64,000 nucleotides of DNA from Fermentimonas sp. Lineage in GTDB: Bacteria; Bacteroidota; Bacteroidia; Bacteroidales; Dysgonomonadaceae. This document shows, in pieces, positions 10,108-59,527 of this stretch (its first letter is position 1; the number at the start of each line of letters is the position of its first letter). The stretch covers positions 15,618-79,617 of the forward strand of contig JAQUIZ010000001.1 of the NCBI GenBank assembly GCA_028683355.1, given 5' to 3'. The notes under the pieces were generated by a model. The model was not told where the DNA came from. It searched no databases and saw only the letters and a program-made list of their open reading frames with translations. The position numbers were made by a program, and so were the translations under genes.

Positions 10108-10133
10108 AATATCAAATCGTTCAAGTTGTTGTA

Positions 10134-10141
10134 CAAAGGTA
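10134..10141 (-). promoter_or_regulatory. candidate Bacteroides -7 promoter box for the SIR2 gene
   Basis: The plus strand reads CAAAGGTA, so the minus strand reads TACCTTTG (TAnnTTTG consensus). It lies 27 nt upstream of the start codon at 10107. Confidence 0.4.
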
Positions 10142-10216
10142 ACTCTTTTTATTGAGTCGTGACATTCAGATGATAATAAATATTGAGGTAATTCGCAATT
10201 TTTATGGCAAATAGTC

Positions 10217-10265
10217 TTACTTGTATAGTGGTTGATTGAAATAAATTCATTACTTTTGCAAGTAA
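10217..10265 (+). promoter_or_regulatory. candidate promoter and operator of the HTH-mod operon
   Basis: TACTTTTG (10251-10258) fits TAnnTTTG, 29 nt upstream of the ATG at 10287. It is embedded in the inverted repeat TTACTT-ttgc-AAGTAA (10250-10265). A further TTACTTG half-site lies at 10217-10223. Confidence 0.35.
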
Positions 10266-10286
10266 AGATGAATAATATAATCCAAT

Positions 10287-10529
10287 ATGGAAGATACTAA
10301 AGATATAAATCGAATCAAGGTGGTTCTTGTGGAGAAGAAACGGACCAACAAATGGTTGGCTGAACAATTAGGGAAAGACCCTGCCACGGTATCAAAATGG
10401 TGTACCAACACTTCACAACCAGGACTGGAAACATTATTGCAGATTGCCAATGTGCTTGAAGTTGATGTCAAGGAGTTGCTGAACTCCTCTTTGGACGAAA
10501 ACATTCAAATTGTCAGACTTGTCAAATAA
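10287..10529 (+). CDS. XRE-family helix-turn-helix protein, likely R-M controller (C protein)
   Basis: 80 aa with the HTH KWLAEQLGKDPATVSKWCTNTSQP. It lies 27 nt upstream of mod on the same strand. Confidence 0.75.
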   Translation: MEDTKDINRIKVVLVEKKRTNKWLAEQLGKDPATVSKWCTNTSQPGLETLLQIANVLEVDVKELLNSSLDENIQIVRLVK

Positions 10530-10556
10530 CAATACCAACCTTTTATCTCACAGATA

Positions 10557-12512: not shown

Positions 12513-13594
12513 TGAGCGAGCAGGAGAAGCACAAAAAGAAAAAAGAACAGGTGACGGTACGCAGCAGTGCAGCCGAATACCTGAACTATGTGGCATCTGT
12601 CGGTAATGACGAGCAACAGATAGAGATACGTTATGAAGACGAAAATATCTGGCTCACACAGAAACTGATGGCGATGCTATACGGTGTGGAAGTACACACC
12701 ATCAACTATCACATCAAGAAAATATTCTCGGACAGCGAGTTGCAGGAAACGGCAGTTATTCGAAAATTTCGAATAACTGCTCCTGACGGCAAACAATACA
12801 CCACGAACCACTATTCATTGGAAATGATTATTGCCGTCGGATTCAAGGTGAATTCCGAGAAAGCTGTGCAGTTCAGGAAATGGGTAAATGGTATTGCTAA
12901 GGAATACACCATCAAAGGCTGGGTGATGGACTCGGAAAGACTGAAACGTGGAACCTTTCTGACAGACAAGTATTTCGATGAGCAATTAGAGCGCATCCGC
13001 GAGATACGCATGAGCGAGCGTCTGTTCTATCAGAAAATAACAGACCTTTATGCCACAGCCGTTGACTACGATAAGACAGCATTGGCCACCCGTCGATTCT
13101 ATGCAACGGTACAGAACAAAATGCACTTTGCCGTTCATGGTCATACAGCAGCCGAACTCATTGTGGAACGGGCAAATGCATCCAAAGAACACATGGGACT
13201 GACTACATGGGCTGATGCCCCCGATGGCAAAATCAAGAAAAGCGATGTGGTGATAGCAAAGAACTATCTTTCAGATACCGAAATGGGACAATTGGAACGC
13301 ATGGTTACGGCTTATCTTGATTTTGCAGAAACAATGACCATGCGCCATATCCCATTGACTATGGCAGATTGGGAACAACGTCTGAACAACTTTATCAATC
13401 TCTTTGAATACGGTCTGTTGAAAGATGCAGGACGTGTAAGTGCCGAAATAGCACGATTACATGCAGAGACGGAATTCGAGAAATACAGAATCATACAAGA
13501 CAAACTGTTTTTGTCTGACTACGACCGCTTTCTATTGGAAATGAAAGAGATTGAGAACAAAAACCATGGAAACAAAAAAGAGGAGAAGCAATGA
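12512..13594 (+). CDS. rhuM: RhuM-family protein embedded in the R-M operon
   Basis: IEIRYEDENIWLTQKLMAMLYGVEVHTINYHIKKIFSD and AVGFKVNSEKAVQFRKWVNGI match my memory of RhuM-family sequences. Its start overlaps the mod stop (TAATG) and its stop overlaps the res start (ATGA). Confidence 0.75.
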   Translation: MSEQEKHKKKKEQVTVRSSAAEYLNYVASVGNDEQQIEIRYEDENIWLTQKLMAMLYGVEVHTINYHIKKIFSDSELQETAVIRKFRITAPDGKQYTTNHYSLEMIIAVGFKVNSEKAVQFRKWVNGIAKEYTIKGWVMDSERLKRGTFLTDKYFDEQLERIREIRMSERLFYQKITDLYATAVDYDKTALATRRFYATVQNKMHFAVHGHTAAELIVERANASKEHMGLTTWADAPDGKIKKSDVVIAKNYLSDTEMGQLERMVTAYLDFAETMTMRHIPLTMADWEQRLNNFINLFEYGLLKDAGRVSAEIARLHAETEFEKYRIIQDKLFLSDYDRFLLEMKEIENKNHGNKKEEKQ

Positions 13595-15954
13595 AGAATT
13601 TAGAATATCAACAAAGAGCGGTAAACGAATTGATTGACAAGACTATCCGTCTACTGAATGCGGGCGGACAGCGCAATAAATTGGTGTTTGAAGCCACGAC
13701 CGGTGCCGGTAAAACCGTAATGGCGTGTCAGATGCTTGCCGGTCTGATGGACGAACTGCATGATCGGGGCGACAGCCGTTATCAAGAAGTGGCATTCATT
13801 TGGTTCGCTCCTCGCAAATTGCACATACAGAGTTACGAAAAGTTGAAAGACACCTTTGAAGAGACTCGCACACTTCGTCCCGTAATGTTTGATGAACTTG
13901 ATCAGAACGAAGGCATCCGCCCGGGTGAAATACTTTTCGTAAACTGGGAAAGCGTTAATAAAGAAAGTAACGTGATGGTGCGCGAGGGTGATTGTTCGTT
14001 GTCACTTTATGAAATTACAGACAAGACGAAAGAAGAATTCGGTTTGCCTATCATAGCCATCATCGACGAAGAACATATGTTCTGGTCAAAGACTGCGGAT
14101 AAGTCGGCTGCCGTACTTGACAAAATCAATCCTATGGTAGAAATCCGCATCTCCGCCACACCTAAAACCGCCAACCCAAAGGAAAAAGTAACGGTGTATC
14201 GTCAGGATGTGATAGCCGCCGAAATGATTAAGAAAGAGGTGGTACTCAACCCGGAGATAGAACTGAATTTCAGCGATGAGCTGGAACTTAATGCCAACCT
14301 TATCAAAGCGGCTTCGGATAAACGTAACCAAATAGCAGAAGCATATAAGTCAGTAGGTTCAGACATCAACCCTTTGCTACTCATTCAGCTGCCTAACGAT
14401 ACAAAAGAAAATATGACGACGGAAGATGCTGCCATAGCCGATCAGGTAAAGAAGTATCTTGAAGTGATGTGTGGTATTACCACCGACAACCACCGTCTGG
14501 CGATATGGCTTGCAAATGAGAAAGAGAATCTGACCGATTTAGAAAAGCCTGACAACCTGACTGAGGTACTGCTTTTCAAAGAAGCCATAGCCTTGGGTTG
14601 GGACTGTCCTCGCGCCGCCGTGCTACTTATATTCCGCAAACTGCAAAGCGACCAGTTTACTATTCAGACTGTTGGTCGTATTATGCGTATGCCGGAACAG
14701 AAGCATTATCCCAAAGAGATGCTCAATGTTGGCTATGTGTTTACCGATATAGCTAAAGACAAGATACAAATCGTTACAGCCGATGCCGACTATATCCTGA
14801 ACAACACTGTTACAGCCTACCGCCGTGAGAATTTGAAAAATGTATGGTTGCCTGCCTGCTATGCGGAACGTCCCAATATAGAACGTAACTATTTAGGGCC
14901 TGACTTTCGCAAAGTGCTCTATGATGAAGCCCGACATTTCTGGGACTTTGCAGAAGGCAATTTACTGTTCTCGTTAGAGGAATTAGCCAAGCTGGATAAT
15001 ACTAATGACGAAAGCGGTCCATTACCTGAGACTGATGACCTAAAAATCAATGAAAATAGGAAAAAGGTAACCAACTCTTTACGCCTTGATGTCAAGAACA
15101 TCAACATTGAGATACCGCAAGACGTACATTTCCAGAACGAGGAACAGATATTAGAAGTTGATACCGTAAAATACGCAAGAAAAGCTACTGAGATTGACCG
15201 CGTGTTTATGGCATACATCGCCACAAAAGGGCATCAATTCGAGAGTAAAGGTCGCGCTGACAAAATTGCAAGTTATCTGCTTGAAATATTGGCCGACTTC
15301 TTCGGTATCTTCGACACAGACGCCAAAAAGGTGGTGCTATATCACTTAAACAAGCCTAAGTTTGACCGCATTATAGACATGGCACTGGAGAAATATGCCC
15401 GTATGCGCGATAGAGCCAAGAAAGCATCTGCAGCCAAGAGAGTATTCAAAAAATACGATTGGGAGGTGCCTGAAGAACGTACTTACGACAATGACACCAA
15501 TCATATAGAGGAAAGCCGGAATCACGCACTCCTGCCATTTGTGCAACTCAACCAGGCATCGAGTCCGGAAAAGAACTTCATAGCCTATCTGGAGCAAAAC
15601 GGACAGTATATAGATTGGTGGTACAAGAATGGAGACAACGGCAAACAGCATTATGCCATAGAATACAGCACCGGCAACGAAAACGGCAAGTCGCTGTTTT
15701 ATGTGGATTTTATCATCCGTATGAAAAACGGTCATATCTATCTCTTCGATACCAAAAGTGCAGGCAGCGACGCATTTGCACACAACAAGCACAACGCATT
15801 GCTGCAATACATCAAAGAAAACACTTCGGACGAAACTCCATTATCGGGAGGTGTCATCCTGCAGCAAGGCGAGAACTGGTTATATTCCCCACTCCCTATC
15901 GAGAATACCACCGATACATTGAACTGGAACTGTTTTTACCCACAAAACGCATAA
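13591..15954 (+). CDS. res: type III restriction enzyme Res subunit (SF2 helicase plus C-terminal PD-(D/E)XK)
   Basis: Walker A EATTGAGKTVMA, DEAH-like IIDEEHMFW and motif VI TVGRIMRMP. The C-terminal nuclease-like motif is FYVDFIIRMKNGHIYLFDTKS. Confidence 0.8.
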   Translation: MKNLEYQQRAVNELIDKTIRLLNAGGQRNKLVFEATTGAGKTVMACQMLAGLMDELHDRGDSRYQEVAFIWFAPRKLHIQSYEKLKDTFEETRTLRPVMFDELDQNEGIRPGEILFVNWESVNKESNVMVREGDCSLSLYEITDKTKEEFGLPIIAIIDEEHMFWSKTADKSAAVLDKINPMVEIRISATPKTANPKEKVTVYRQDVIAAEMIKKEVVLNPEIELNFSDELELNANLIKAASDKRNQIAEAYKSVGSDINPLLLIQLPNDTKENMTTEDAAIADQVKKYLEVMCGITTDNHRLAIWLANEKENLTDLEKPDNLTEVLLFKEAIALGWDCPRAAVLLIFRKLQSDQFTIQTVGRIMRMPEQKHYPKEMLNVGYVFTDIAKDKIQIVTADADYILNNTVTAYRRENLKNVWLPACYAERPNIERNYLGPDFRKVLYDEARHFWDFAEGNLLFSLEELAKLDNTNDESGPLPETDDLKINENRKKVTNSLRLDVKNINIEIPQDVHFQNEEQILEVDTVKYARKATEIDRVFMAYIATKGHQFESKGRADKIASYLLEILADFFGIFDTDAKKVVLYHLNKPKFDRIIDMALEKYARMRDRAKKASAAKRVFKKYDWEVPEERTYDNDTNHIEESRNHALLPFVQLNQASSPEKNFIAYLEQNGQYIDWWYKNGDNGKQHYAIEYSTGNENGKSLFYVDFIIRMKNGHIYLFDTKSAGSDAFAHNKHNALLQYIKENTSDETPLSGGVILQQGENWLYSPLPIENTTDTLNWNCFYPQNA

Positions 15955-15959
15955 GTACT

Positions 15960-16178
15960 ATGGCAAAAGGAATAGACCCCAAATTTGTACATTACGGCAT
16001 CCGCAAGGATGATCTTGCAATGATAGAAGCTATTTGCGCTACCGAAGACATAGATTTTGATTGGCTGAGTGAGGACATCTTGAAAGCCTACCATGCAAAA
16101 AAAGTGGATGTAATCGAAATGAATGATGGCGATACGGAAGAGATAATCCGCAACGCCATACAGAAAATACGTCAATAA
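15960..16178 (+). CDS. 72-aa acidic protein of unknown function
   Basis: ATG at 15960, 5 nt after the res stop. The longer ORF-track entry (15615-16178) overlaps res out of frame. The gene is tightly packed before the DndD-like gene. Confidence 0.55.
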   Translation: MAKGIDPKFVHYGIRKDDLAMIEAICATEDIDFDWLSEDILKAYHAKKVDVIEMNDGDTEEIIRNAIQKIRQ

Positions 16179-16191
16179 ATGAATTTACGCC

Positions 16192-18192
16192 ATGCTCATA
16201 CAAAGAATAAAGATTAGCAATTTCAAGACTTACCTGTCGCTCGACCTCGATTTAACGGTAGATGACGACCGCCCTATTATACTCATCGGTGGTTCAAACG
16301 GTGGAGGTAAAACCACCCTGTTCGAAGCTATAAGCGGTGCATTGTATGGATTGAAAATAGAGAACAAGGAACACTTTATGGAATTGCTCAATCAAGGGGC
16401 AGTCAATCGGGTGAAGCCAGAAATCAGTCTGCAAATCACCTTTGTTGGCAAAGTGCTTGGTCAGCAACAGAAGTATATCCTAAAACGCATATACCAGCTT
16501 AATCCACAAGGTCGTCCGCTTGAAAGTGTATCGCTGAACATGAACGGCAATATGTATGTGTATGGCACAATGACTGCACCCAAAGAAAGGGTGCGGGCTG
16601 AACAGGAAATCAGCAAGATAATCAAGGCCAACCTGCCGCAGGAATTGAGCCAGTATTTTCTGTTTGATGCGATGCAGTCGAGCGAGTTACTGAAAAAGAA
16701 TGTTTTTCAGCAGACCATACGCGACAACTTTGAGAATGTGCTTGGCTTCAAAAAGTATCTGCAACTGAAACGTGCAGCAGAGAAATTACAACAAGAGTGG
16801 GCAGAACAACGATTGGAAGCAGAAAAAGAAGCCAAAGAATACAACTCGTTATGCAATCAGAAAGAGCAGTTGGTAATTGATTTGAACACTTGCCTTGCAG
16901 AGCAAGACAGGTTGTATAAATATCTGTCATCGGTGGAAGATGAATACCAGCGAGCTAAAGATGGTGCGCAACAGGCTGCCAACCTAAGCAAACGTATACA
17001 GGACGTTGACGGTAAAATACGAGCCATAGCTGAGGAAGCTGCCATTTATGCAGAAAACTTGAAGATATTTATAAACAACATAGAAATCAATGTATTCCTT
17101 CCCAAATTGGCCTCCAACCTTTCTCAGGAAATCAACAATATATTACGAGTAAAGGAACAACTCCAAAAACAGAGCACTGGTGCCTATCCGATTGAGACAC
17201 TTCGTGATGTAACGTCAAAAATTATAGACTATTTGAAAGAGCTGTCGCTATGCAGTCAAGCAGTGGATGAAGAAAACGTGGTCTCGCATATTGTAGCCAT
17301 GCAGAACACAACCAATGCCAAAGATCCATACGACTACTTGAACACTGCCGAGGTGGATGCACTTCGGGAACTGCCGAAAAAAGGCAATGGCAACCAATTC
17401 GTTTCCATTGACCGCAAAAGGCAGGATATGGAAATACAGCTTGCCAACCTGGATAATCTCAGGACCGAGAAGCGCACACTTGAACAGACACAGGCTGGAG
17501 GAAACGGTTTACTTATAGTCAACTATGAAGATGCCAAACGTTCTGTGGAGAAGTTGAAAACGCAAGAAGACAGTCTCAAAAACGAGATTCAGCGTTTGGA
17601 AAAACGTATTCATCAATTCGATGTACAGATACAGCAGGAACCGGATGTGAAATTTGATACACTAGTCAAGTTGCGTCCGTTCTTCGATAAAGTGGCAGAC
17701 AATCTGCTGAAAAAGAAAAAGACTCAGATAGAAACAGAGATGCAGTCGCAACTCAATCGCCTGCTGGTATCATATAAAGGACATGTAGGCCGTGTGGAAT
17801 TGTCAGACAGCATGGAGAATTTCAATATCAAACTCTATCACAGTGCAGGCAATGAAATATCGTTGAACCAGCTGAATGCTGCTTCAAAGCAGATATTCAT
17901 ACAGGTATTGTTGAAAGTGCTACGCAATCTTGGCGACTATAACCCACCGGTTATGATTGATACCGTGATGGGTGTACTTGACAATGAAAGCCGTGATGCT
18001 TTAATGGAAGAATACTTTCCACAATTGGCAGAACAGACCATTCTGCTCTGTACTACATCGGAAATACGCACGGATAGCGACTATATAAAACTGGAGCCAT
18101 TCATCTCGAAAACATATACTCTGCATCGTAATGTAGAGGAACAGAATACAACTATAGATGAAGGCTATTTTGGAATACCCCTTAATCAGTAA
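16192..18192 (+). CDS. DndD-like / Rad50-SMC-like ABC ATPase
   Basis: Walker A LIGGSNGGGKTTLFEAI and a long charged, coiled-coil-like middle. The C-terminus PPVMIDTVMGVLDNESRDALMEEYFPQLAEQTILLCTTSEI resembles the DndD Walker B/D-loop end. Confidence 0.8.
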   Translation: MLIQRIKISNFKTYLSLDLDLTVDDDRPIILIGGSNGGGKTTLFEAISGALYGLKIENKEHFMELLNQGAVNRVKPEISLQITFVGKVLGQQQKYILKRIYQLNPQGRPLESVSLNMNGNMYVYGTMTAPKERVRAEQEISKIIKANLPQELSQYFLFDAMQSSELLKKNVFQQTIRDNFENVLGFKKYLQLKRAAEKLQQEWAEQRLEAEKEAKEYNSLCNQKEQLVIDLNTCLAEQDRLYKYLSSVEDEYQRAKDGAQQAANLSKRIQDVDGKIRAIAEEAAIYAENLKIFINNIEINVFLPKLASNLSQEINNILRVKEQLQKQSTGAYPIETLRDVTSKIIDYLKELSLCSQAVDEENVVSHIVAMQNTTNAKDPYDYLNTAEVDALRELPKKGNGNQFVSIDRKRQDMEIQLANLDNLRTEKRTLEQTQAGGNGLLIVNYEDAKRSVEKLKTQEDSLKNEIQRLEKRIHQFDVQIQQEPDVKFDTLVKLRPFFDKVADNLLKKKKTQIETEMQSQLNRLLVSYKGHVGRVELSDSMENFNIKLYHSAGNEISLNQLNAASKQIFIQVLLKVLRNLGDYNPPVMIDTVMGVLDNESRDALMEEYFPQLAEQTILLCTTSEIRTDSDYIKLEPFISKTYTLHRNVEEQNTTIDEGYFGIPLNQ

Positions 18193-18198
18193 ATAGTT

Positions 18199-19785
18199 AT
18201 GAGTATAATAAACTTTTCAAATACCCGTCAGATGGAGGGGATTCTTGACGAAATAAGTCAAGTAAAGGAACTTATCGAGAGTAAGATAAATTTGTCGCGC
18301 ACCGCCGACAGAGAAAAACGTGCAAGTCTGACTGCAAACAAGGTAATGCGCATTTGCTTTATAGTCGGTTTGAGTCTGACAACAGAACGCAAGGAAGAAG
18401 AATACAAGGATATACAGCTATCTGCCACATCGGCACGTATCGTTCCGAGCTTCTTCACGATGCACGATTTATCTACCTTATATTCTGCATTACTGAAATT
18501 GCGCTATGCCAATCTGAATATAGATTGGTCACAAAATGCCGTGCTTTCACGCATTATTGCAGCCGAAATGCTGCGTGGCAGAGACTACCTGTTGATAGAC
18601 AATAATTTGGATTCCATATTATACGCCGTAAACAACAAGGTTGCAATGGTAAAAGATATTCCTGCCCTGAACTTGATAATAGGCAACTATGGCGATGTGG
18701 AAATGGAGGCTACTCTTGATATCAACAGCCGTGACATTACCAATTCGCAAATCATCATTGCAGGTGCTACGGGTTCAGGAAAGACGAATCTGCTTGCAGT
18801 GCTGATGCAACAGTTCAGAGCATTATCGTCTGAATCGCAATATCCGGTAAACTTCCTGCTTTTCGATTACAAAGGAGAGTTCAGCGACATTCAGAACAAT
18901 CACTGGCTTTCACATTTCGATGTGGATCGCAGCTGTATCTTAGACCCGATTGAGCATCCCCTACCGTTCACGCCGTTCAAGGATTTTACAGACCGCCCAA
19001 TCAACGAAATAAATCTTTATTCATCCGAAATGGCTTCGGCTCTATGCTCAATTGACCGAGTATCAGCCAGTGCAAATATGAATAACCGATTGAGTGAAGC
19101 CATTGTAGAAGCATATAAGAAAACAGAAGGCGCGCCCATTACATTCAACATGATGTTGGAAGAATATCAAGCCAAGATGACAGATGCCGGAAAGGACGAC
19201 AGCATTTCGTCTGTATTGAAACAGTTGGTGCGTGCTAACATCTTCGAGGAGGAAGACAAAGCCAGCCTTATCGATGACTGCTACATCATAAAAATGGACG
19301 GCTACCCCAAAGACGGCCCGATAGCAAAGGCTATTGTCTATTTCATTATCTCAAAGCTTAATAATATATACGAACAACTCGAAAAACAAGCGACTAACGA
19401 GGATGTAGTGCAAATCCGCCATTTCTCGATCATTGACGAAGCGCACTATATGCTGGATTTTGACAATCGCCCATTACGGAATCTGATTGCCGTAGGCAGA
19501 AACAAGGGATTAAGCATTATCCTTGCCACCCAAAATATGAGCAGTTTCAAGAGCAAAGGCTTTGATTTTTATGCTAATGCCCAATATCCGCTCATCATGA
19601 AGCAGCAAACTATTGACGACAAGGTTATCAAAGACCTATATGGGGTAAGCGGACAAGAACTGCAAGAGGTGCGTACTGCCATAGCCGGACTCCAGAAAGG
19701 CGAACTGATTATCAAAGACCAAATGGCCTTTGCTTTGGGTATGGGTAAGAAATATAAGAAAATCAATGTGACACATTTGATATAA
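18199..19785 (+). CDS. HerA/FtsK-like P-loop ATPase with an unassigned N-terminal domain
   Basis: Walker A IIIAGATGSGKTNLLAVL, Walker B FSIIDEAHYMLD and LSIILATQNMSSF. The first ~170 aa have no recognisable motif. Confidence 0.75.
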   Translation: MSIINFSNTRQMEGILDEISQVKELIESKINLSRTADREKRASLTANKVMRICFIVGLSLTTERKEEEYKDIQLSATSARIVPSFFTMHDLSTLYSALLKLRYANLNIDWSQNAVLSRIIAAEMLRGRDYLLIDNNLDSILYAVNNKVAMVKDIPALNLIIGNYGDVEMEATLDINSRDITNSQIIIAGATGSGKTNLLAVLMQQFRALSSESQYPVNFLLFDYKGEFSDIQNNHWLSHFDVDRSCILDPIEHPLPFTPFKDFTDRPINEINLYSSEMASALCSIDRVSASANMNNRLSEAIVEAYKKTEGAPITFNMMLEEYQAKMTDAGKDDSISSVLKQLVRANIFEEEDKASLIDDCYIIKMDGYPKDGPIAKAIVYFIISKLNNIYEQLEKQATNEDVVQIRHFSIIDEAHYMLDFDNRPLRNLIAVGRNKGLSIILATQNMSSFKSKGFDFYANAQYPLIMKQQTIDDKVIKDLYGVSGQELQEVRTAIAGLQKGELIIKDQMAFALGMGKKYKKINVTHLI

Positions 19786-19800
19786 AAAACATTCTAGCAA

Positions 19801-21390
19801 ATGATAGAACGCGTTGTTATCAAAAATTTCAAAGGAATAAAGGATGCAGACATTTCCTTTAACGATAAAATCAATATCATTGTAGGAAATAATGGAGTAG
19901 GCAAATCCACTCTTATAGAAGCAATCGCAATAGCTTTAGGGTATGGTATCAATCAACTTGAAATCACCCAGTATCTTTTTCACGCAACAACGTGGAAAGA
20001 TTTTGACGAGAGGAAGACCTTACCTGAGATTGTTATTGAGTTGTACTTCAATGAATCATTCTCTGCAGAATACTCAGGAAAGAACAATAGTTTATCGCTG
20101 TTAGCACCTGGAATCAGATTAAGAATTGCTTGTGATAATTCTTATTTAACATTATTTCAAGAGCAAAAAGAACAATACAAGCATATACCATGTGAGTTTT
20201 ATATCATTGACAGACATTGGTTTTCTGGAGAAACTGTCAAACAATTGCTAATTCCTTTCACTCCTTGGATAATAGACTCATCATCTAACACCTTTAACAA
20301 TAAAGCCAATCAGTTAGCTACACGCCTAATTTCGCATAAACTATCTGATACAGAACGTGTACAAGTCAAAGGATGTTTGAGAGCACTTAGAGAACATTTC
20401 GAAAGCGACAACAAAGTCAATGAAATCAACACTTCGCTAAATGATAAAATAAAGGACGTGTCTCCAGACTTTAAATTGACTGTGGATTTAACTACCAAAA
20501 CAGCATGGAATACAATTTTATGTCCTGTTTTAAAAGATATTCCTTTTTCCCAAATCGGTTTAGGAGATCAGTGTATTGTCAATACCCTCTTATCACTTGA
20601 TTCATCAAACAAGATAGAACGAAAAGAAAAATTATTGATTGTTGAAGAGCCAGAATCTCACTTATCTCATACAAAAATGTATGAACTACTGAACTGTTTA
20701 GACGATTTTAAAGGACAAATATTTATAACCACACATAGCAGTTATGTTGCGAATAAGTTATCTCTTAGTAATTTGCTAGTATTAGGGAATGAGAATGGAA
20801 AGATTTGCAATCAAAAAATTTTCGATTTAGATGACTATAATTTCTTCGCCAGAGTTCCAAACTATCCAACTTTACGGATTGCTCTGTGTAAAAAAGCAAT
20901 ACTAGTTGAAGGTCCTACTGATGAAATGGTATTATTATATCATTTCATGAAAGAATATCAATGTCATCCATTTGCCATGAACATTGAACTTATTTCTGTT
21001 GGAGGAGTAGTATTTAAACATTTCGCTCAATTAGGAGCTACACTTAATAAAAAAATCGCCATAATCACTGACAATGACTCATCTCCACTTGAAGAGCTAA
21101 AAAAGAAAAGAGCTATTAACCAAGAACTAAATGTTAGGCTATTTTCTGAGGAAAACACTCTAATACATACATTAGAGCCTGCTTTTGTTCGTGCAAATCT
21201 CAGTAATATTGATAAATTATCATTGTTGGTTAGAGGAAAAGTTGAATCAGAAGAAACAGAAGAAAAGTTATCGGACTATATGGTAAAACATAAAACTGAG
21301 TGGGCTCAAAAATTATTAGAAGCCAAATCTTATGATTATGATGTTCCGCAATATATAAAAGACGCAGTAAATTGGTTAGTTAATGGTTAG
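19801..21390 (+). CDS. gajA: OLD-family ABC ATPase-TOPRIM nuclease (GajA-like)
   Basis: Walker A VGNNGVGKSTLIEAI and Walker B LLIVEEPESHLSH. The TOPRIM Glu is in AILVEGPTDEMVL and the DxD motif is in IAIITDNDSS. Confidence 0.8.
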   Translation: MIERVVIKNFKGIKDADISFNDKINIIVGNNGVGKSTLIEAIAIALGYGINQLEITQYLFHATTWKDFDERKTLPEIVIELYFNESFSAEYSGKNNSLSLLAPGIRLRIACDNSYLTLFQEQKEQYKHIPCEFYIIDRHWFSGETVKQLLIPFTPWIIDSSSNTFNNKANQLATRLISHKLSDTERVQVKGCLRALREHFESDNKVNEINTSLNDKIKDVSPDFKLTVDLTTKTAWNTILCPVLKDIPFSQIGLGDQCIVNTLLSLDSSNKIERKEKLLIVEEPESHLSHTKMYELLNCLDDFKGQIFITTHSSYVANKLSLSNLLVLGNENGKICNQKIFDLDDYNFFARVPNYPTLRIALCKKAILVEGPTDEMVLLYHFMKEYQCHPFAMNIELISVGGVVFKHFAQLGATLNKKIAIITDNDSSPLEELKKKRAINQELNVRLFSEENTLIHTLEPAFVRANLSNIDKLSLLVRGKVESEETEEKLSDYMVKHKTEWAQKLLEAKSYDYDVPQYIKDAVNWLVNG

Positions 21391-22555
21391 AAACAATATT
21401 TGTTACATAGCATCCGCTGGTGCTGGTAAAACGACCAAATTGGTTAAAGATGCAGCAATTAATGCGACCAATGATTCTTGCAAAAAAATTGCAATTATCA
21501 CATACACACAGAATAATCAAGCCCATATTAGAAGTAAATTAGAACAATATGAATTTGGTTATAAAATTGTTGTAATGGGTTGGTTTGAGTTTCTATTAAA
21601 GCATTGGATAACACCATTTAAGACGATGATTTTTCCACACCTAATTGATTCTCATATAGGCATAGCTCCTGTTGAAGGCAAATCTGGAATTAAAAAACTC
21701 TCAGATGGAAGAACTTTTGTTGCTTATCAAAAGGAAGATTACAGTAAAAAATATCTAACCACTGAAGGATCTAAAGTATATACTGATAAAATATCGGAAT
21801 TAGCCTATGAATTATATACAAGAAACGAAACAGATGTGATCGAAAGGTTAAATTCCATATTTGATTTTTTATATTTTGATGAATGTCAGGATTTTGTAGG
21901 ATACGATTATGAAATCCTGAAAATATTACTTGTAAAGTCTAAGATTTGTTGTGTCCTAGCCGGAGATCCTCGTCAACATACATATTCGACACATGCAACT
22001 TCAAAGTATAAAAAATTTTCTGGAGATATTGCAACTTTCATTCAAGAAAACATCAATAGAAAAAGAAAACAATATGTAATCATAGATAAAACAAGTCTTG
22101 TCAAATCTCACAGATGTCCGCCATCTATATGCAATTTTGCAAATGTAATAATGTCTCAATTTCCCAAAATGGAATCTGCTAATATGCGATATTACCAAAC
22201 TGAACATTGCAAACTGGTTAGGCAAAAAGACGCTGAAAATTATATAAACAGATTCAATCCCATTGCACTTATCTGGAACCATAGCGCAAAAGATAAAGTA
22301 CACTCAAATATTAGCAGAATATACAACATGGGGGAAGTTAAAGGTCTTGACTTTCTGAATATCATCGTTTATCCAACAAAAACTATGGAAAAGTGGATAA
22401 AAGATACAAATACAGAATTATCAAGAGAGGCACGAGCCAAATTATATGTAGCTGTTACACGAGCGGAAATATCAACAGGAATAGTTGTTCCTGACGATTT
22501 TCATATTCCATTAAATTCTAAGATTCAATTTTGGGACAACAATTCAGGCATATAG
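21383..22555 (+). CDS. gajB: short UvrD-like SF1 helicase (GajB-like)
   Basis: Motifs ASAGAGKTTKLV, LYFDECQDFVGYD, LAGDPRQHTY and LYVAVTRAEIS. It overlaps the gajA-like gene by 8 nt. Confidence 0.75.
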   Translation: MVRNNICYIASAGAGKTTKLVKDAAINATNDSCKKIAIITYTQNNQAHIRSKLEQYEFGYKIVVMGWFEFLLKHWITPFKTMIFPHLIDSHIGIAPVEGKSGIKKLSDGRTFVAYQKEDYSKKYLTTEGSKVYTDKISELAYELYTRNETDVIERLNSIFDFLYFDECQDFVGYDYEILKILLVKSKICCVLAGDPRQHTYSTHATSKYKKFSGDIATFIQENINRKRKQYVIIDKTSLVKSHRCPPSICNFANVIMSQFPKMESANMRYYQTEHCKLVRQKDAENYINRFNPIALIWNHSAKDKVHSNISRIYNMGEVKGLDFLNIIVYPTKTMEKWIKDTNTELSREARAKLYVAVTRAEISTGIVVPDDFHIPLNSKIQFWDNNSGI

Positions 22556-22655
22556 GACAATAACACTATGCCTGATCGTTTATGCTAAGTATTTTAAAGA
22601 ATAATTCTTTTGAATACATGAAATAGATAAATATTAACAAATTAGACAAATAAGT

Positions 22656-23183
22656 ATGAGTATGCCAGATGATAGAAGACCAAGAATTATCGACGTAACA
22701 CGCAAGCCGACAAAATGTCCAGATTGCGGTGAAAGAGTCGTTGATATAATTTATGGTACTGGAGATATGACTGAAATTGAGTTTGCACTTCAATACAGAA
22801 AAGAAGCCATTATGGGTGGAGACAATATACCTCGTCGTCCTCCAATATGGTGTTGCTCGTGTGGATGCAAACGATTTAGAAAAGTGAATCCTGATGGAAC
22901 GGATGCTCCAGTAAAAGTAAAAATGCTGAAAAACATCCGTAAAGCACCTGCCTCTAAAATAAATTGGAGTTCAAAGATGATTGAAACAGCCTTAGATAAC
23001 AAGGATATCTATACTATACATCACTATCATGCAAAGATAATTACTGAACTTGGTGAATGTGAAACTCTTTCTCTAACTGCCGTAAGTACTGAAGATGCAA
23101 AAGAACTGGCAAAAGAATTAGTATCAAGTGGTTTACTTGGACTTGACGGTCGTACTTGTATGAATATAGAATTTATAGAATAG
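22656..23183 (+). CDS. zinc-ribbon protein, function unknown
   Basis: 175 aa. CPDCGERV ... WCCSCGCKRF forms a Cys4-type ribbon, with an unassigned C-terminal half. It lies 7 nt upstream of the next gene. Confidence 0.55.
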   Translation: MSMPDDRRPRIIDVTRKPTKCPDCGERVVDIIYGTGDMTEIEFALQYRKEAIMGGDNIPRRPPIWCCSCGCKRFRKVNPDGTDAPVKVKMLKNIRKAPASKINWSSKMIETALDNKDIYTIHHYHAKIITELGECETLSLTAVSTEDAKELAKELVSSGLLGLDGRTCMNIEFIE

Positions 23184-23190
23184 TTCGCAA

Positions 23191-24210
23191 ATGGAAAAGA
23201 CAATCGATGGAGTAGTATACTATCTTCCGAGTAATTTAACATCGGAACAAGAAGCCATTTATGTTCACATCATAGACTGGAAGCGAAAATACATCACTAC
23301 GCAAAGAGGTTTATACAGGGGACATGAATACGATGCTATATTCCCAGATGAGAACCCTATCCCAGAAATGCTGTACAAACCGATAATACCATTGCTGAAT
23401 GAAATGCAACAAGGTAAATTTGCTTATAAACCACATAAGTTTGCCTATCACGCCGTAAGTTCACAGACTGCTTGTATCAATCTTTTCATGCCTTTACTCC
23501 TTTCTGAAGATGCAGACAGCATATTACCTATGATTCCAGGATGTCCTGCGGACTTCAGTAAGATAGCAAGAGACAAGTTGTTCAGTGGATTCTGTTTTGA
23601 ATATTGGGGACAAGACATTAAACAAGGCACAGGTGTATTGAATGACCATTCCAGCCAGGCCGGAACGGATGCGGATGTCGCAATTGCGTATTATAACAAG
23701 GAAGACAAATTATGTCTATGGCTTATAGAACATAAACTGAGCGAGAAAGAGTTTACAATGTGCGGTGCATACAAAAGCAAAGCAAATAGAAACAAGCATA
23801 ATTGTTCTCAATGTGATTTCATGAGTATAGCCAAAGAGCCTCAGAAATGCCATTATCACAAGATAGGATATGAATACTGGAATATTCTAAAGAAAAATAT
23901 GGAAAGATTCCAAGGTTTAATTGAGATTGAAGGCTGTCCATTCAAAAACGGACTTAACCAGCTATGGCGTAATCAGATGCTTGCATTTGCGTTGCAGGAA
24001 ACAGGAGAGTATCATACAGTAACTTTCTCGGTATGCCATCATGCAAGAAACACCATGTTAGACAAGTCAATCAATCGATACAAAGCATTAACCTGTGGAG
24101 ATAGAATATTCAGTTCTTTCACCAACTATGATGTTTTGAATGCTGTAACTACGCACGATTATGATTTGCCAAAATGGATACAATGGTATAAAGAGGTCTA
24201 TTGCTTTTAA
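23191..24210 (+). CDS. PD-(D/E)XK nuclease-like protein with a Cys/His-rich insert
   Basis: HAVSSQTACINLFMPLL is followed by GTDADVAIAYYNKEDKLCLWLIEHKLSEKEF (a D ... E-x-K core). After that comes C-x13-C-x2-C ... C-H-x-H. Confidence 0.6.
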   Translation: MEKTIDGVVYYLPSNLTSEQEAIYVHIIDWKRKYITTQRGLYRGHEYDAIFPDENPIPEMLYKPIIPLLNEMQQGKFAYKPHKFAYHAVSSQTACINLFMPLLLSEDADSILPMIPGCPADFSKIARDKLFSGFCFEYWGQDIKQGTGVLNDHSSQAGTDADVAIAYYNKEDKLCLWLIEHKLSEKEFTMCGAYKSKANRNKHNCSQCDFMSIAKEPQKCHYHKIGYEYWNILKKNMERFQGLIEIEGCPFKNGLNQLWRNQMLAFALQETGEYHTVTFSVCHHARNTMLDKSINRYKALTCGDRIFSSFTNYDVLNAVTTHDYDLPKWIQWYKEVYCF

Positions 24211-24225
24211 ACAATATAGTTTGCG

Positions 24226-24900
24226 TTACAATACAGTCAAAGCAGCCACACAACTTTGTTGGGTATCTTCTATCAGTTTTAAAAAGAGCATTGGGTCTAT
24301 GCTATTTCCATTGAACTTACAGGTAATATGCAGGTGTTCCCCGGTGCTACGCCCCGTATTGCCTGTAATCCCGACAACATCACCCGGCAGAACTGCCTGC
24401 CCCTGTGACACGAAAATTTGAGACAGGTGGCAATAGCTGACGATGAAGCTGCCGTGTTGTAACGTGACATATTTTCCTGATACTTTGTCCTCTCCTACCT
24501 TCAGCACTCTCCCCTGCATCATGGCAAACACCTTGGCACTCCGGGCATGGAGGTCAATGCCGTTGTGAAACTTCCTCTTCCCTGTAAAAGGGTCTTTCCG
24601 ATAGCCGTATGGCGAATTGATTTTGACAGATGAGAGCGGATAGCATACGCTAAGATAGTGTGCTACCTGCTCTTTCTTTTTGGTATCCGTACTTGACAAA
24701 GCAACCTTGTCGGGTACGGACTTTTCGTTTTCAGAGGTGATGCTTTCGGGTGTCGCCTCTGTTTCGTTTGTCGTCCGGGATGGATTTTCCACAACGACTT
24801 TATAGCTATTGCCCGGACAGGAAACCGTGTTGAACTGCGCTTTTGCATGGTTTCCGGACAATAGCAAAAGAAGGGATATAAGGATTCGTGTTTTACTCAT
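24226..24900 (-). CDS. secreted M23 (LytM-type) metallopeptidase
   Basis: Signal peptide MSKTRILISLLLLLSGNHAKAQ from the ATG at 24900. Motifs HNGIDLHA (HxxxD) and GNTGRSTGEHLHI (HxH). Confidence 0.8.
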   Translation of the reverse strand: MSKTRILISLLLLLSGNHAKAQFNTVSCPGNSYKVVVENPSRTTNETEATPESITSENEKSVPDKVALSSTDTKKKEQVAHYLSVCYPLSSVKINSPYGYRKDPFTGKRKFHNGIDLHARSAKVFAMMQGRVLKVGEDKVSGKYVTLQHGSFIVSYCHLSQIFVSQGQAVLPGDVVGITGNTGRSTGEHLHITCKFNGNSIDPMLFLKLIEDTQQSCVAALTVL

Positions 24901-25120
24901 AGATGCAAATGTAGGAACAGTTTTCCGTCCACGCCAAAAGATGCCCTGATTTACACTCAAAATATAACATTAAACAAGTTCAGAGTATGATTATTATACC
25001 ACAATCATACTTAAAACATAAATAAACACAAATAATCAGACTATTTGCAGCAATAAAAATTGAAGTATGAATAATAGTACATACCTTTACCAAAGTATAA
25101 TTAAAATATCATATCAAAAT

Positions 25121-25879
25121 ATGAAACAAGTACGATTTGAATTTGAGGAACTGCCATACGACACCCTGTCGCAGTTCGGACTTACCCAAGAAATGATTGA
25201 AGACCTGCCCATGCAGACCTTGGAGGCAATCAGTCACGGCAGACACTCTCCCGTACTGCCCATCAAGGTAAATGACGAGAACGGAAACACCGTTACCGAG
25301 CGAAGCCGTTTCGCTTTCGTGCGCAAGGAAAACGGAGAAGCCGATGTGATATTCTTCCCGGTATTGAAGAAATCGCCTTTGGAGAAATACAACGAGGAGC
25401 AGAAAAAGCAGCTCCAATCCGGCAAGACCATCCTTGCAGACTCCGTAACGGCGGACGGACGCAAGACCAAGGTATTCGTGCAGATCGACACCGAGACCAA
25501 CCAGGTCATGTCCGTTCCCACACAGGTCATCGCCCGCAACCTTCAGGTATTGGCAGAGGAACTGAAACTCAGCAATGCCGAAATCAAGGTGATGCAGCAA
25601 GGGGAACCTTTGACCTTTGTGATGGAAGACGAACCGGTTACGGTCGGCATTGACCTGAACGAGAAGAACGGCATCCGCTTCTGCCAGGGCGACAGCCAGA
25701 AATGGAGCGAGCACACCAAAAGAGAATGGGACAAATACACATTCGGCTGTTACGGCTGTTGGGTCATGGACGATGACGGAAATCTTGACTATGTACCCGA
25801 AGAACAGTACACAGAAGAACTCTGGAACGAACAGAAAAAGAGTGCCCAGCGCAATATGGGTGCAGGACTTCACAAATAA
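25121..25879 (+). CDS. DUF4099-like protein of Bacteroides conjugative elements
   Basis: FEFEELPYDTLSQFGLTQEMIEDLPMQTLEAISHGRHSPVLPIKV resembles the DUF4099 N-terminal pattern, judged from memory. The ATG at 25121 is preferred over the 25067 start. Confidence 0.5.
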   Translation: MKQVRFEFEELPYDTLSQFGLTQEMIEDLPMQTLEAISHGRHSPVLPIKVNDENGNTVTERSRFAFVRKENGEADVIFFPVLKKSPLEKYNEEQKKQLQSGKTILADSVTADGRKTKVFVQIDTETNQVMSVPTQVIARNLQVLAEELKLSNAEIKVMQQGEPLTFVMEDEPVTVGIDLNEKNGIRFCQGDSQKWSEHTKREWDKYTFGCYGCWVMDDDGNLDYVPEEQYTEELWNEQKKSAQRNMGAGLHK

Positions 25880-25891
25880 TCTTCAATCCTT

Positions 25892-26122
25892 ATGATTATG
25901 GCACAAAACGCATTTTATCCCGAAGACGTTCTCATCGAGAAGATGGAGAGCGGAGAATACAGCTGGCTGGATTATGTCAACCACTTTTCTGCCGAATGGC
26001 AGGATGAACTGGCGGAATACTGCACGGAACACGCATTGGAAATCAACGATGCCTCTGCCGAGCAGTTCGTCCATTACAAAAGCGAACAATTAGAAGCCGC
26101 CATGGAGAGCGGTGAAGCATAG
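25892..26122 (+). CDS. small acidic hypothetical protein
   Basis: 76-aa ORF tightly packed between neighbours on the same strand. No motif recognised. Confidence 0.4.
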   Translation: MIMAQNAFYPEDVLIEKMESGEYSWLDYVNHFSAEWQDELAEYCTEHALEINDASAEQFVHYKSEQLEAAMESGEA

Positions 26123-26127
26123 AAATT

Positions 26128-27747
26128 ATGGCCATACGAACCCATACAAATCCAAGGATAGCGGACTTACAACCTGAAATGCGTGACCTGTTGATGCGCA
26201 ACGGTATGCAAGCCCACATCGTGCCTGCCGGAGAAGGCTACCAGTTGGTAGTACAAGGGCACGACTCTCCGCTCTTGCGATACCCCATCAGCAAGCAGCA
26301 GTTTTCAGCTCTTACCGACTGGGGTACGAACCATGCCAACAAAAAGGCATACAACACCTTTACGGAGATAGTAAAGAATGACTTTGAGCTGCCACGCAAC
26401 TTTGTCCATGCTCGTAATGCCAACGGCAGGGTGGCTATGGGACTGCACGGTTACCGTATCGGCATCAGGGAATACGGCAGGGTCGGCAGATATGGGATGC
26501 CGCCTCCATTCTTGGGATGGACACCCCGACAGCAGGAAGGCTACCACCTCCGCAGAGTGGGCGGCCGGCTTTTCTATGCAGGAACGCCCATGGTGGCAGA
26601 ACGTCCCGACGGACGCATGAAACCCGGAGAACTCCAGTCGGGCGGTTACGGATTCTATTACAAAGGCCATCCACAACAGCAGCCGGCACAACCCGTCCGC
26701 CAAGACGTGTTGCAGGAGCTGCAAGCCGTCATCACCCCGATGGTAGGCAAGCCCAGAAGCGAAGAACCTGCAAAGCCCTACAAGGAGCTGATTACCTCCC
26801 CTGTCTATTTCTCTAATGAGAAGTGGCAGGAATGCCTCTCTTCCCACGGCATACTCGTAGACAAAGAAGAAAAGACCCTGACCATACAATCGGAACAAGT
26901 CCATGCCGATATGGTCTATGACATCACAGATGCGGAATTATCCGCACTGACCTCCAATTCCATCGAAGAGTACCCGATAGAGCGACGATTGGAGCTGTTG
27001 AACACGGTTATTCAGGAAGACTTCGCCGATAAGATCACGATGGATTCCCTGAATCATACCGAGCGCATCGGTATCACCTTGCATCCCGAAGTAGAGCAAG
27101 ATTTGGCAGCACGCCAACAGCAGGAACAGGACTTGCTCCTGCCATTGGAATCCGATAACAGCCTTGCGCCGCACTCTGCAGAACAGACCGTATTGCAAGA
27201 AGATGAATCCATTATCAGAGAACCACAGGAAGGAGCTTTGATTGACGGACGAGACTTGCCGTATCTCCATGAAAGCAAGGGATGGTACCGGGAAGGAGAA
27301 CACGGACGGGAGGTGGAAGTGGAAGCGATTGCCGTACAGCCGGCAGAAGCGGAAGGCGAATACAGGATGACCGCCATTATCAATGGAGAAGCCATCACCC
27401 ACGAAATCAGCCAAAAGCAGTACGACAAGTTCCTGGCAGTGGATGACTACCACCGCATGAAGCTCTTCTCGAAAGTGTTCAACGAGGTCGATATGAAGAC
27501 ACGCCCGGAGATACGGAGCAACTTGGGTGCAAAGATATTCGCAGCCCTTGCCGCAGGAACAGTCGTGGCTTCCGACCTTGCCCACAGCATTCACCACCAC
27601 TCTTGCCCGGAATTATACGGCGAGCATTTCTGTCATGCGCCCCGTCCCTATTTCAAACCCGGAGTGGATTCACCGAGGGATGTAGCCGCGCGGAACTTCG
27701 AGGCACAGATGAACCAAGAAATAGCGGAGATACGCAGAGGATTTTAA
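26128..27747 (+). CDS. hypothetical conjugative-element protein (539 aa)
   Basis: Long ORF with backbone composition, co-oriented and tightly packed. It has a Gly/Arg/Tyr-rich segment and a C-terminal hydrophobic segment (IFAALAAGTVVASDLA). Confidence 0.55.
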   Translation: MAIRTHTNPRIADLQPEMRDLLMRNGMQAHIVPAGEGYQLVVQGHDSPLLRYPISKQQFSALTDWGTNHANKKAYNTFTEIVKNDFELPRNFVHARNANGRVAMGLHGYRIGIREYGRVGRYGMPPPFLGWTPRQQEGYHLRRVGGRLFYAGTPMVAERPDGRMKPGELQSGGYGFYYKGHPQQQPAQPVRQDVLQELQAVITPMVGKPRSEEPAKPYKELITSPVYFSNEKWQECLSSHGILVDKEEKTLTIQSEQVHADMVYDITDAELSALTSNSIEEYPIERRLELLNTVIQEDFADKITMDSLNHTERIGITLHPEVEQDLAARQQQEQDLLLPLESDNSLAPHSAEQTVLQEDESIIREPQEGALIDGRDLPYLHESKGWYREGEHGREVEVEAIAVQPAEAEGEYRMTAIINGEAITHEISQKQYDKFLAVDDYHRMKLFSKVFNEVDMKTRPEIRSNLGAKIFAALAAGTVVASDLAHSIHHHSCPELYGEHFCHAPRPYFKPGVDSPRDVAARNFEAQMNQEIAEIRRGF

Positions 27748-27764
27748 CTAAAAAGGACACACAG

Positions 27765-28937
27765 ATGGCAAACGGAGAACTGACATACGATGACTTCCTG
27801 CAACGGTTGGACATACAGGACGTACTGGTGGATGCAGGCTATCACCTGAACAAGCGTGACGGCCTGCGTTATCCGTCCTATATCCGCACGGACAGCAATG
27901 GCACACGCATCCGTGGAGACAAGTTTATCGTGACCGGAGGTGGCAAATGTTGCTTCCAGCCCCCACAGCAAAAGCTCTACAACATCATCTCCTTTATCAA
28001 GTCGTTCCCCGAAAAGTTTGCAGAACACAGAAACGGCGTGTCTCCCGACAGGTTAGTCAACCTTGTCTGTAACCGACTGTTGAACCACCCTATCGAAGAC
28101 AGGCCAATCCGTATCATCCAGCCCAAGCAGCACAGCCGTCCGTTCAGTCTCCATGATTACGACATACACCGTTTTGACGTAAACGACCGGGAGACCCACA
28201 AGCGTTTCTATCCCTACTTCAAGAGCCGTGGCATTGACATCTTCACGCAACGTGCTTTTGCCGACCATTTTTTCTTAGCCACCAAACACAGGACAGACGG
28301 TCTGTCATACGCCAACCTCGCTTTCCCGTTGGTATTGCCCAAAGAGTCTGACAAGGTTGTCGGTTTGGAAGAGCGTGGACGCCCCAAGATGGACGGCAGC
28401 GGCAGCTATAAAGGAAAGGCCGAAGGGAGCAACAGCAGCGAAGGCTTGTGGATAGCCAATTTCAGCGGAGAACCTTTACATCAAGCCGGAGGTGTCGCCT
28501 GGTTTGAAAGTGGCTACGATGCAATGGCATTCCACCAACTGCACCGTGACACCTTCCGGGACAATCCCGAACTTTCCAAGAAAAGCGTGTTTGTCTCCAC
28601 CGGCGGCACGCCCACCGATATGCAGATCAGGGGAATGCTCTCCGCCACCCCGAATGTGAACCACTACCTGTGTTTCGATAACGACAGTGCCGGGCGCGAG
28701 TTTGTAAATAAATTCAGGAGCATAGTGAAATCCATGCACGTCAATCCGGAACAGATCAGAGAAATCCCCTTGATGCCCTGTTACAAGGACTGGAACGATG
28801 CCCTGCTTGGCAAGACGAGCGAGGAATACCTTGACAGCATCAAAGATGCGGTTATTCCTTTGAGTGCGCCACTCGCTACAAAAGGAAGTACAGCCGACGA
28901 AGAAGAAATAAACGAACAATCCACCATCCACAGATAA
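27765..28937 (+). CDS. Toprim-domain protein (primase-like, TraP-type role plausible)
   Basis: The Toprim Glu is in VAWFESGYDAMAFHQL and the DxD motif is in HYLCFDNDSAGREF. The ATG at 27765 avoids overlap with the upstream gene. Confidence 0.7.
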   Translation: MANGELTYDDFLQRLDIQDVLVDAGYHLNKRDGLRYPSYIRTDSNGTRIRGDKFIVTGGGKCCFQPPQQKLYNIISFIKSFPEKFAEHRNGVSPDRLVNLVCNRLLNHPIEDRPIRIIQPKQHSRPFSLHDYDIHRFDVNDRETHKRFYPYFKSRGIDIFTQRAFADHFFLATKHRTDGLSYANLAFPLVLPKESDKVVGLEERGRPKMDGSGSYKGKAEGSNSSEGLWIANFSGEPLHQAGGVAWFESGYDAMAFHQLHRDTFRDNPELSKKSVFVSTGGTPTDMQIRGMLSATPNVNHYLCFDNDSAGREFVNKFRSIVKSMHVNPEQIREIPLMPCYKDWNDALLGKTSEEYLDSIKDAVIPLSAPLATKGSTADEEEINEQSTIHR

Positions 28938-57656: not shown

Positions 57657-57731
57657 ATCAAAAGAGGAATAATCTTAATCATTACCACTGTGCATAAACT
57701 TACAGGATGGTTTCAGAATATATCAACAATT

Positions 57732-59522: not shown

Positions 59523-59527
59523 TTATT

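Follow-up and report, generated by a model that had tools for sequence, protein, structure and literature searches.

Do two small genes that lie 7 nucleotides (nt) apart at the edge of a defence island work together as one system, or are they neighbours through the way in which a mobile element is put together? This question is raised by positions 22,656 to 24,210 of a 64,000-nt stretch of DNA from Fermentimonas sp. (Bacteroidales; Dysgonomonadaceae; GenBank assembly GCA_028683355.1, contig JAQUIZ010000001.1, positions 15,618 to 79,617 of the forward strand), to which we refer as the window. The window represents a Bacteroidales conjugative transposon, with genes for TraM, DUF4138, DUF4099 and Toprim proteins and for two ArdC-N/MPTase proteins, and it holds a large defence-cargo region between the gene of the coupling protein and that of an M23 peptidase. 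A preliminary description of the locus had taken the two genes for an unassigned two-gene module, possibly a new small defence system. In the following, ZR denotes the gene for a zinc-ribbon protein of 175 amino acids (aa) as well as its product, NU the gene for a 339-aa nuclease and its product, while L-numbers designate related loci. The argument turns on three genes:

22656-23183, + strand: ZR, 175 aa, Cys4 zinc ribbon and small alpha/beta C-terminal domain
23191-24210, + strand: NU, 339 aa, by family a stand-alone PD-(D/E)XK nuclease, with a predicted four-Cys helical insert
24226-24960, - strand: M23 peptidase gene (Pfam Peptidase_M23, E = 6.5e-24), the first backbone gene right of the island

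Both ZR and NU are real, conserved genes, with 476 and 536 database relatives, respectively, at E ≤ 1e-3. As the preliminary description stated, they are AT-rich open reading frames (ORFs) 7 nt apart at the end of the island. The junction reads TAG-ttcgcaa-ATG, the GC content is 0.34-0.38 across 22-24 kb compared to 0.47-0.53 in the backbone downstream and, since the M23 peptidase gene is next after NU and convergent with it, ZR and NU close the AT-rich island. Based on the evidence given below, we consider it likely that ZR and NU are independent genes which became adjacent through the build of the mobile element, NU being a self-contained cargo nuclease and ZR a fixed anchor gene. If so, a false candidate two-gene defence system is removed, and its place is taken by a modular cargo hot spot of a very widespread gut Bacteroidales conjugative transposon, in which the small, conserved ZR lies between two slots, each of which exchanges its defence genes without regard to the other (Gabija, ADP-ribosylglycohydrolase (ARG)-type and helicase systems, lone nucleases).

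Co-occurrence of ZR and NU in other genomes

The neighbourhoods of NU were surveyed in GTDB with one genome per species, whereby 139 relatives were found and the best 80 loci kept. The hosts belong to Bacteroidota, Cloacimonadota, Spirochaetota, Chloroflexota, Desulfobacterota, Myxococcota, Armatimonadota, Ignavibacteria, Fibrobacter and others. A search of all ORFs of these loci with the ZR profile (hmmsearch) places ZR beside NU in two of the 80 species genomes only, namely in L001, a near-identical element, and in L006 from Bacteroides gallinarum. In the other 78, NU occurs without ZR, and close NU orthologues with 78-84% identity (L002-L005, L007-L009) are among them. Neither was any other zinc-ribbon protein seen upstream of NU, in the place of ZR, in the NU loci of other genomes.

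Viewed from ZR, the result is similar. Exact-sequence look-ups and a metagenome scan yielded 90 ZR loci, 75 of which had enough flanking sequence to be counted. Directly downstream of ZR, 15 of these 75 loci have NU, 16 have the convergent M23 peptidase gene and the remainder have one of 20 other clusters, so that ZR stands without a following NU in 60. The other genes in this position encode an alcohol dehydrogenase-like protein (ADH; 8 loci; the label, Zn-dependent alcohol dehydrogenase-like, was judged from sequence alone), an unknown 593-aa protein (6), RhuM (4), a dual-specificity phosphatase (3), a NucS-like nuclease (2) and membrane proteins. The phyletic range of the two genes differs as well, NU being present in many phyla and ZR in Bacteroidota only among the sources with a named organism. 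Co-occurrence in other genomes had been put forward in the preliminary description as one of the observations on which the module would stand or fall; the genes do not co-occur and, with a recombination breakpoint between them (see below), the two-gene module has to be given up. A toxin-antitoxin-like arrangement, which had also been proposed, finds no support either, as NU has no steady partner upstream and as non-toxic genes (for ADH, phosphatase, RhuM, membrane proteins) or nothing at all replace it behind ZR.

Breakpoints around ZR and NU

Recombination breakpoints were located by blastn comparison of window positions 16000-28000 with related loci. The upstream cargo differs in L094, L092 and L001; compared to these loci, homology of 96-98% begins at 22629-22656, i.e. 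at the ZR start codon or at most 27 nt upstream of it, and runs unbroken through ZR, NU, the M23 peptidase gene and the backbone. Compared to L113 and L112, homology ends at 23170, compared to L082 at 23052, and it resumes at 24322-24326; these three loci have other or no downstream cargo. Two further features are thereby delimited:

22556-22655, + strand: spacer between gajB and ZR, 100 nt, AT-rich, holding the recombination breakpoint on the left of the ZR-NU-backbone block
23171-24321, no strand assigned: cargo slot 2, about 1.15 kb with NU, absent or replaced in related elements

Slot 2 takes in ~13 nt at the end of ZR and ~96 nt at the 3' end of the M23 peptidase gene. The breakpoints thus define NU as a cassette of about 1.15 kb and ZR as a constant segment between exchangeable regions. 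Cassette-site repeats, hairpins and terminators were looked for in the flanks of NU, where nothing beyond chance was found.

In the arrangement that we propose, ZR would be a fixed, conserved gene between an upstream slot, filled by Gabija in the window, and the ~1.15-kb downstream slot, filled here by NU, and its conserved DNA may serve as a homology arm when related elements exchange cargo. In this respect ZR resembles the conserved genes that flank, as anchors, the cargo hot spots of integrative and conjugative elements, keeping a constant position and sequence while both flanks turn over; it differs from them in that it belongs to no described family.

Several observations do weigh against the independence of the two genes and against NU as a self-contained nuclease. 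Within the transposon lineage the gap between ZR and NU is only 4-19 nt, and the identities of ZR and NU to the window copies run in parallel (99/99, 90/91, 77/77-80 and 68/64%), which means that the adjacency is old in that lineage. Furthermore, the restriction of the NU survey to one genome per species and to the best 80 of 139 hits has to be counted here, Foldseek finds no significant match for NU in the PDB (none at E ≤ 0.001), and PADLOC-DB v2 (v2.0.0) does not contain the NU family. The parallel divergence would also be expected if ZR and NU were a functional pair in the transposon lineage, with ZR as DNA-binding regulator or adaptor for the downstream cargo gene; the two genes share a strand, their 7-nt gap holds no terminator, and the 15 loci in which NU directly follows ZR include at least five different upstream contexts. 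Such a pair is, however, difficult to reconcile with the 78 species genomes in which NU lacks ZR and any analogous partner, with the loci in which ZR directly precedes the convergent M23 peptidase gene or unrelated cargo, and with L118 and L145/146, where one to four other genes lie between ZR and NU. In L092, moreover, NU matches its window copy at 100% identity and ZR at only 91%, which points to recombination between the two genes. On balance, we regard a functional pair as improbable and keep to the reading of ZR and NU as independent genes.

Two cargo slots flanking ZR

Upstream of ZR we again find 20 clusters, the commonest of which is a 132-aa ORF, here called c8 (22 of 75 loci); the others include UvrD-like, HsdR-like and Upf1-like helicases, a DUF1810-ARG fusion and GajB. 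The same upstream cargo is combined with different downstream cargo: GajAB and ZR are followed by NU in the window vs. ADH in L113, ARG and ZR by NU in L094 vs. phosphatase in L112, and c8 and ZR by NU, the 593-aa protein, ADH or nothing. The two slots flanking ZR assort independently. With regard to the upstream slot, we had also considered ZR as an accessory of helicase operons, since several loci have it behind helicase genes; this was rejected, as many of the 20 upstream clusters in the wider census are non-helicase.

The c8 ORF has no Pfam or PADLOC family. It lies 1-5 nt from ZR and behind many different upstream genes (e.g. L081-L086, L092, L096 at 7601-7996, L119-L136), is absent from the window, and its combination with ZR is commoner than that of ZR with NU. 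In Prevotella nigrescens (L087-L090), ZR overlaps by 7 nt the 3' end of a gene for a 915-aa Upf1-like helicase/DUF2726 protein, upstream of which lie the genes for proteins of 774 aa (helicase+PIN) and 2264 aa, together a large uncharacterised helicase-nuclease operon. In L094 (4159-7324) and L112 (6380-9032), genes for an XRE-type helix-turn-helix (HTH) protein and a DUF1810+ADP_ribosyl_GH (ARG) fusion precede ZR, which is followed by NU or by a gene for a dual-specificity (Cys-based) phosphatase.

The latter arrangement resembles, save for ZR in its middle, the ARG-centred systems of Iyer et al. 2022 (PMC9503650), for which that paper predicts a role in countering phage ADP-ribosylation. It thus has to be asked whether NU is the effector nuclease of such a system, composed of ADP-ribosylglycohydrolase and rhodanese-phosphatase, whose ARG module has been replaced by Gabija in the window. 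NU matches the Pfam family REase-ARP, a name which we infer to go back to section 3.8 of that paper, where a 'rapidly evolving REase' is placed in ARG/rhodanese-phosphatase neighbourhoods. Moreover, the order HTH, DUF1810+ADP_ribosyl_GH, ZR, NU is found in L001 and L094 with an NU that is 99-100% identical to the window copy, and HTH, ARG, ZR and dual-specificity phosphatase follow each other in L112 and L114. Yet the island of the window contains no ARG gene, NU also follows ZR behind UvrD-like, LRR (leucine-rich repeat)/c8 and Gabija cargo, and among the 80 NU genome loci an ARG homologue occurs in one, ARG not being among the top neighbour families. We hence give the effector reading little chance and keep to NU as self-contained cargo.

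NU, a member of the PGN_0703 family

NU was described as unassigned, which does not hold: it matches two Pfam families, PF22558 REase-ARP (E = 4.9e-18, 66.1 bits) and PF20796 PDDEXK_13 (E = 4.7e-12, 46.3 bits), each with a gathering cut-off of 27, and public annotation already carries a family name, the UniRef entry of an 81%-identical homologue being called 'PGN_0703 family putative restriction endonuclease'. The same two domains are precomputed for nearly all listed homologues. Judged by its family, NU is a putative PD-(D/E)XK nuclease from an already catalogued family; in the literature on PF22558, PF20796 and PGN_0703 we found an incidental transcriptome mention and no biochemically characterised member.

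The restriction-endonuclease-like core noted in the preliminary description is supported. All quoted motifs are present, i.e. SSQTACINLF (S90-F99), GTDADV (D160, D162) and LWLIEHK (E180, K182), and in an alignment of 75 homologues S90, S91, Q92, D160, D162, E180, H181 and K182, the catalytic residues included, are invariant. The same holds for C191, C205, C220, C249 and H284. The proposed zinc-binding cluster, C191-x13-C205-x2-C208 followed by C220-H-x-H223, is thus only partly borne out: the Cys-rich insert exists, but C208, H221 and H223 are variable and C249 belongs to the set, so that the conserved putative metal ligands are four cysteines (191, 205, 220, 249) rather than a Cys/His cluster.

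With the 75-sequence alignment as input, AlphaFold2 yields a model of high confidence (predicted local distance difference test score (pLDDT) 94.6, predicted template modelling (TM) score 0.93). In this model the core elements follow the order alpha-beta-beta-beta-alpha-beta, D160 and D162 are located at the start of strand 161-169 (beta-2), E180-H-K182 at the end of strand 174-182 (beta-3), and a helical insert at ~191-255 after beta-3 bears the four invariant cysteines. As modelled, the core has the canonical PD-(D/E)XK geometry. Foldseek, one of the checks that had been suggested, gave no significant PDB match for either protein (for NU, the top matches, which are the restriction or nicking enzymes N.BspD6I and MspI, and Can2, have E ~1 and TM ≤ 0.25). 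The NU family profile matches no sequence among all PDB chains; PADLOC-DB v2.0.0 has no family for ZR or NU at E ≤ 1, its mREase_IV models missing NU, and both proteins lack a model in NCBIfam and in PHROGs. The Pfam scan of NU recognised no domain that would read modified bases (SRA, EVE, winged helix), and tblastn found neither NU nor ZR in the PLSDB plasmids and no NU in the INPHARED phages.

In other genomes, too, NU lies in defence islands, and there it stands alone. The commonest Pfam families among 125 non-redundant immediate neighbours are Methylase_S (8), GmrSD_N (5), AbiEii (5), HSDR_N (4) and AAA_5 (4), followed by SWI2_SNF2/ResIII, NucS_C, RhuM and Fic. As ZR is absent from 78 of 80 species genomes and the defence neighbours vary, NU behaves like a horizontally mobile gene that sits on its own in defence islands; it is shown to move as a single gene and to lie preferentially beside restriction-modification (R-M), abortive infection (Abi) and type IV restriction genes. 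In Alloprevotella it stands alone, with an outer-membrane beta-barrel gene on one side and the gene for ribosomal L25 on the other.

One recurring arrangement is hsdM-hsdS-NU-(x)-hsdR, which occurs in 13-17 of the 80 loci and in which the NU start overlaps hsdS by 1 nt in six cases. NU might hence be an accessory or back-up nuclease of type I R-M systems that is non-functional, or differently regulated, when alone, analogous to PrrC, which occupies the same position between hsdS and hsdR in EcoprrI. PrrC is an anticodon nuclease of the ABC-ATPase type, while NU has a PD-(D/E)XK core and is also found without type I genes. Indeed most NU loci, among them the window and Alloprevotella, have no type I genes nearby, and NU is fully conserved there, catalytic residues included. 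We thus see a type I accessory role as very improbable, and NU as a self-contained nuclease remains the preferred reading.

In the window, no methyltransferase gene is adjacent to NU, and within 10 kb there is none besides the type III Mod (10557-12512), the only one that the island has, which is paired with its own Res. The statement that NU is not part of a classical type II R-M system is therefore correct, and most NU loci elsewhere have no methyltransferase gene either. NU would be a Mg2+-dependent DNA endonuclease in which the four cysteines may hold a structural Zn ion or an Fe-S cluster. From its type I R-M, GmrSD, AbiE and McrB-like neighbourhoods it could be expected to cut invading DNA without a methyltransferase. 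Since it presumably acts without a cognate methyltransferase, it would have to be modification- or feature-dependent or latent until triggered; most likely it would recognise a feature of foreign DNA in a type IV-like manner, or stay inactive until triggered.

With the REase-ARP/PDDEXK_13 (PGN_0703) family, NU shares both Pfam models, the D...ExK core and the conflict-system context; REase-ARP was described from ARG/rhodanese-phosphatase neighbourhoods, whereas the NU subfamily, as mentioned, almost never has an ARG gene beside it (1 of 80 loci). Like the solitary type IV PD-(D/E)XK enzymes (Mrr, McrC-type), NU is stand-alone, without methyltransferase, in defence islands and near GmrSD and McrB-like genes; it differs from them in having no recognised reader domain and no sequence or significant fold match to the solved ones. 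With the Fe-S- or Zn-containing class of Cas4, AddB and Dna2 it has in common a PD-(D/E)XK core and four invariant cysteines, but in Cas4 and AddB the cysteines bracket the domain, whereas in NU all four are located in one insert that separates beta-3 from the next helix, and there is no sequence match.

As the family is broad (536 relatives), embedded among R-M and Abi genes and of putative function only, NU is a reasonable, though not exceptional, candidate for a single-gene defence nuclease. A stronger version of this proposal would be that NU is a single-gene anti-phage or anti-plasmid system with a four-Cys metal cluster and that, separately, ZR actively organises the cargo hot spot. We hold this to be rather unlikely; if true, the metal cluster would distinguish NU from the known solitary restriction enzymes, and ZR might regulate the genes inserted on either side of it or promote the exchange of cassettes.

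ZR, a conserved backbone protein

The description of the 175-aa protein as a zinc ribbon with a C-terminal domain outside known families is supported. Its cysteine motifs are CPDC (C21, C24) and CCSCGC (C66-C71); among 61 homologues C21, C24, C69 and C71 never vary, and at least 90% have C67. In the AlphaFold2 model, which is confident (pLDDT 90.6), a zinc-ribbon module at the N-terminus is followed by a small beta-beta-alpha-beta domain at the C-terminus. Pfam, NCBIfam, PADLOC and PHROG contain no family for ZR, Foldseek has no match for the model in the PDB at E ≤ 0.001, and the ZR profile gives only chance C2H2-finger matches against all PDB chains. The C-terminal domain of ~55 aa weakly matches small uncharacterised phage proteins in BFVD (Foldseek, E = 4e-3 to 0.2), one of them DpnD/PcfM-like; these matches are too weak and were set aside. 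An identification with ARPP of the ARG systems was likewise rejected, because PMC9503650 describes the ARPP fold as a duplicated four-stranded meander with an inserted barrel, with which the ZR model does not agree.

In a hidden Markov model search of 1.84 billion cluster representatives, the ZR family consists of essentially one full-length cluster at 50% identity, one divergent relative and fragments. Identity is at least 62% among the 120 best-scoring homologues, and the NCBI entry, 'MULTISPECIES: hypothetical protein [Bacteroidales]', covers at least 1000 contigs. Given the zinc ribbon, a basic stretch (KRFRK...KVKMLKNIRK), the strong conservation and the fixed position, ZR is probably a nucleic-acid-binding backbone protein. 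Its occurrence on at least 1000 public contigs may make it of interest to groups working on mobile elements of Bacteroides.

The zinc-ribbon module of ZR (RKPxKCPxCG...YG...GG...PxWxCxxC) recurs in a few distant small proteins (P0409, P0427, P0439, P0440, P0422), which carry unrelated extensions at the C-terminus or, in one case, at the N-terminus. The module looks like an undescribed mobile domain.

The conjugative transposon and its other defence genes

Besides the AT-rich island, the window has two further AT-rich patches. Their genes are listed here together with those of the island and with backbone genes mentioned above:

6056-8236: TraG/VirD4-type coupling protein, transposon backbone
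8332-24210: AT-rich island, holding in order SIR2-like, type III R-M, DndD/PbeC-like and DUF87/DndH-C-like, Gabija, ZR and NU
8332-10107, - strand: SIR2-like protein (PADLOC candidate PDC-S65, E = 8e-184), the first island gene, on the opposite strand
10557-12512: type III R-M Mod, with Res at 13591-15954
12512-13594: RhuM-family gene (PADLOC PDC-S05), nested between mod and res
16192-19785: DndD/PbeC-like SMC-type ATPase (666 aa) and DUF87/DndH-C-like ATPase (528 aa)
19801-21390, + strand: gajA, 529 aa (PADLOC GajA, E = 2.1e-128)
21383-22555, + strand: gajB, 390 aa (PADLOC GajB, E = 9.6e-92), its start overlapping the gajA stop
34525-36462 and 38936-40648: paralogous ArdC-N + MPTase-PolyVal (zincin) proteins, of a type linked to anti-restriction, backbone
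47831-49620: AbiE-type pair, DUF6577 protein (242 aa) followed by AbiEii nucleotidyltransferase (354 aa), second AT-rich patch
57690-61495: tandem GmrSD-like genes, GmrSD_N+DUF7834 (610 aa) and GmrSD_N+GmrSD_C (655 aa), third AT-rich patch

The Gabija system is complete and occupies variable slot 1 directly upstream of ZR, and it does not belong to the ZR/NU pair. In the related loci L081-L086 and L138, the DndD/PbeC and DUF87 genes are followed by a gene for a PbeA-like DEAD/ResIII helicase of ~1080 aa and by c8. As Gabija sits where these elements have the PbeA-like helicase and c8, the Pbe/Dnd-like system of the window may be truncated.

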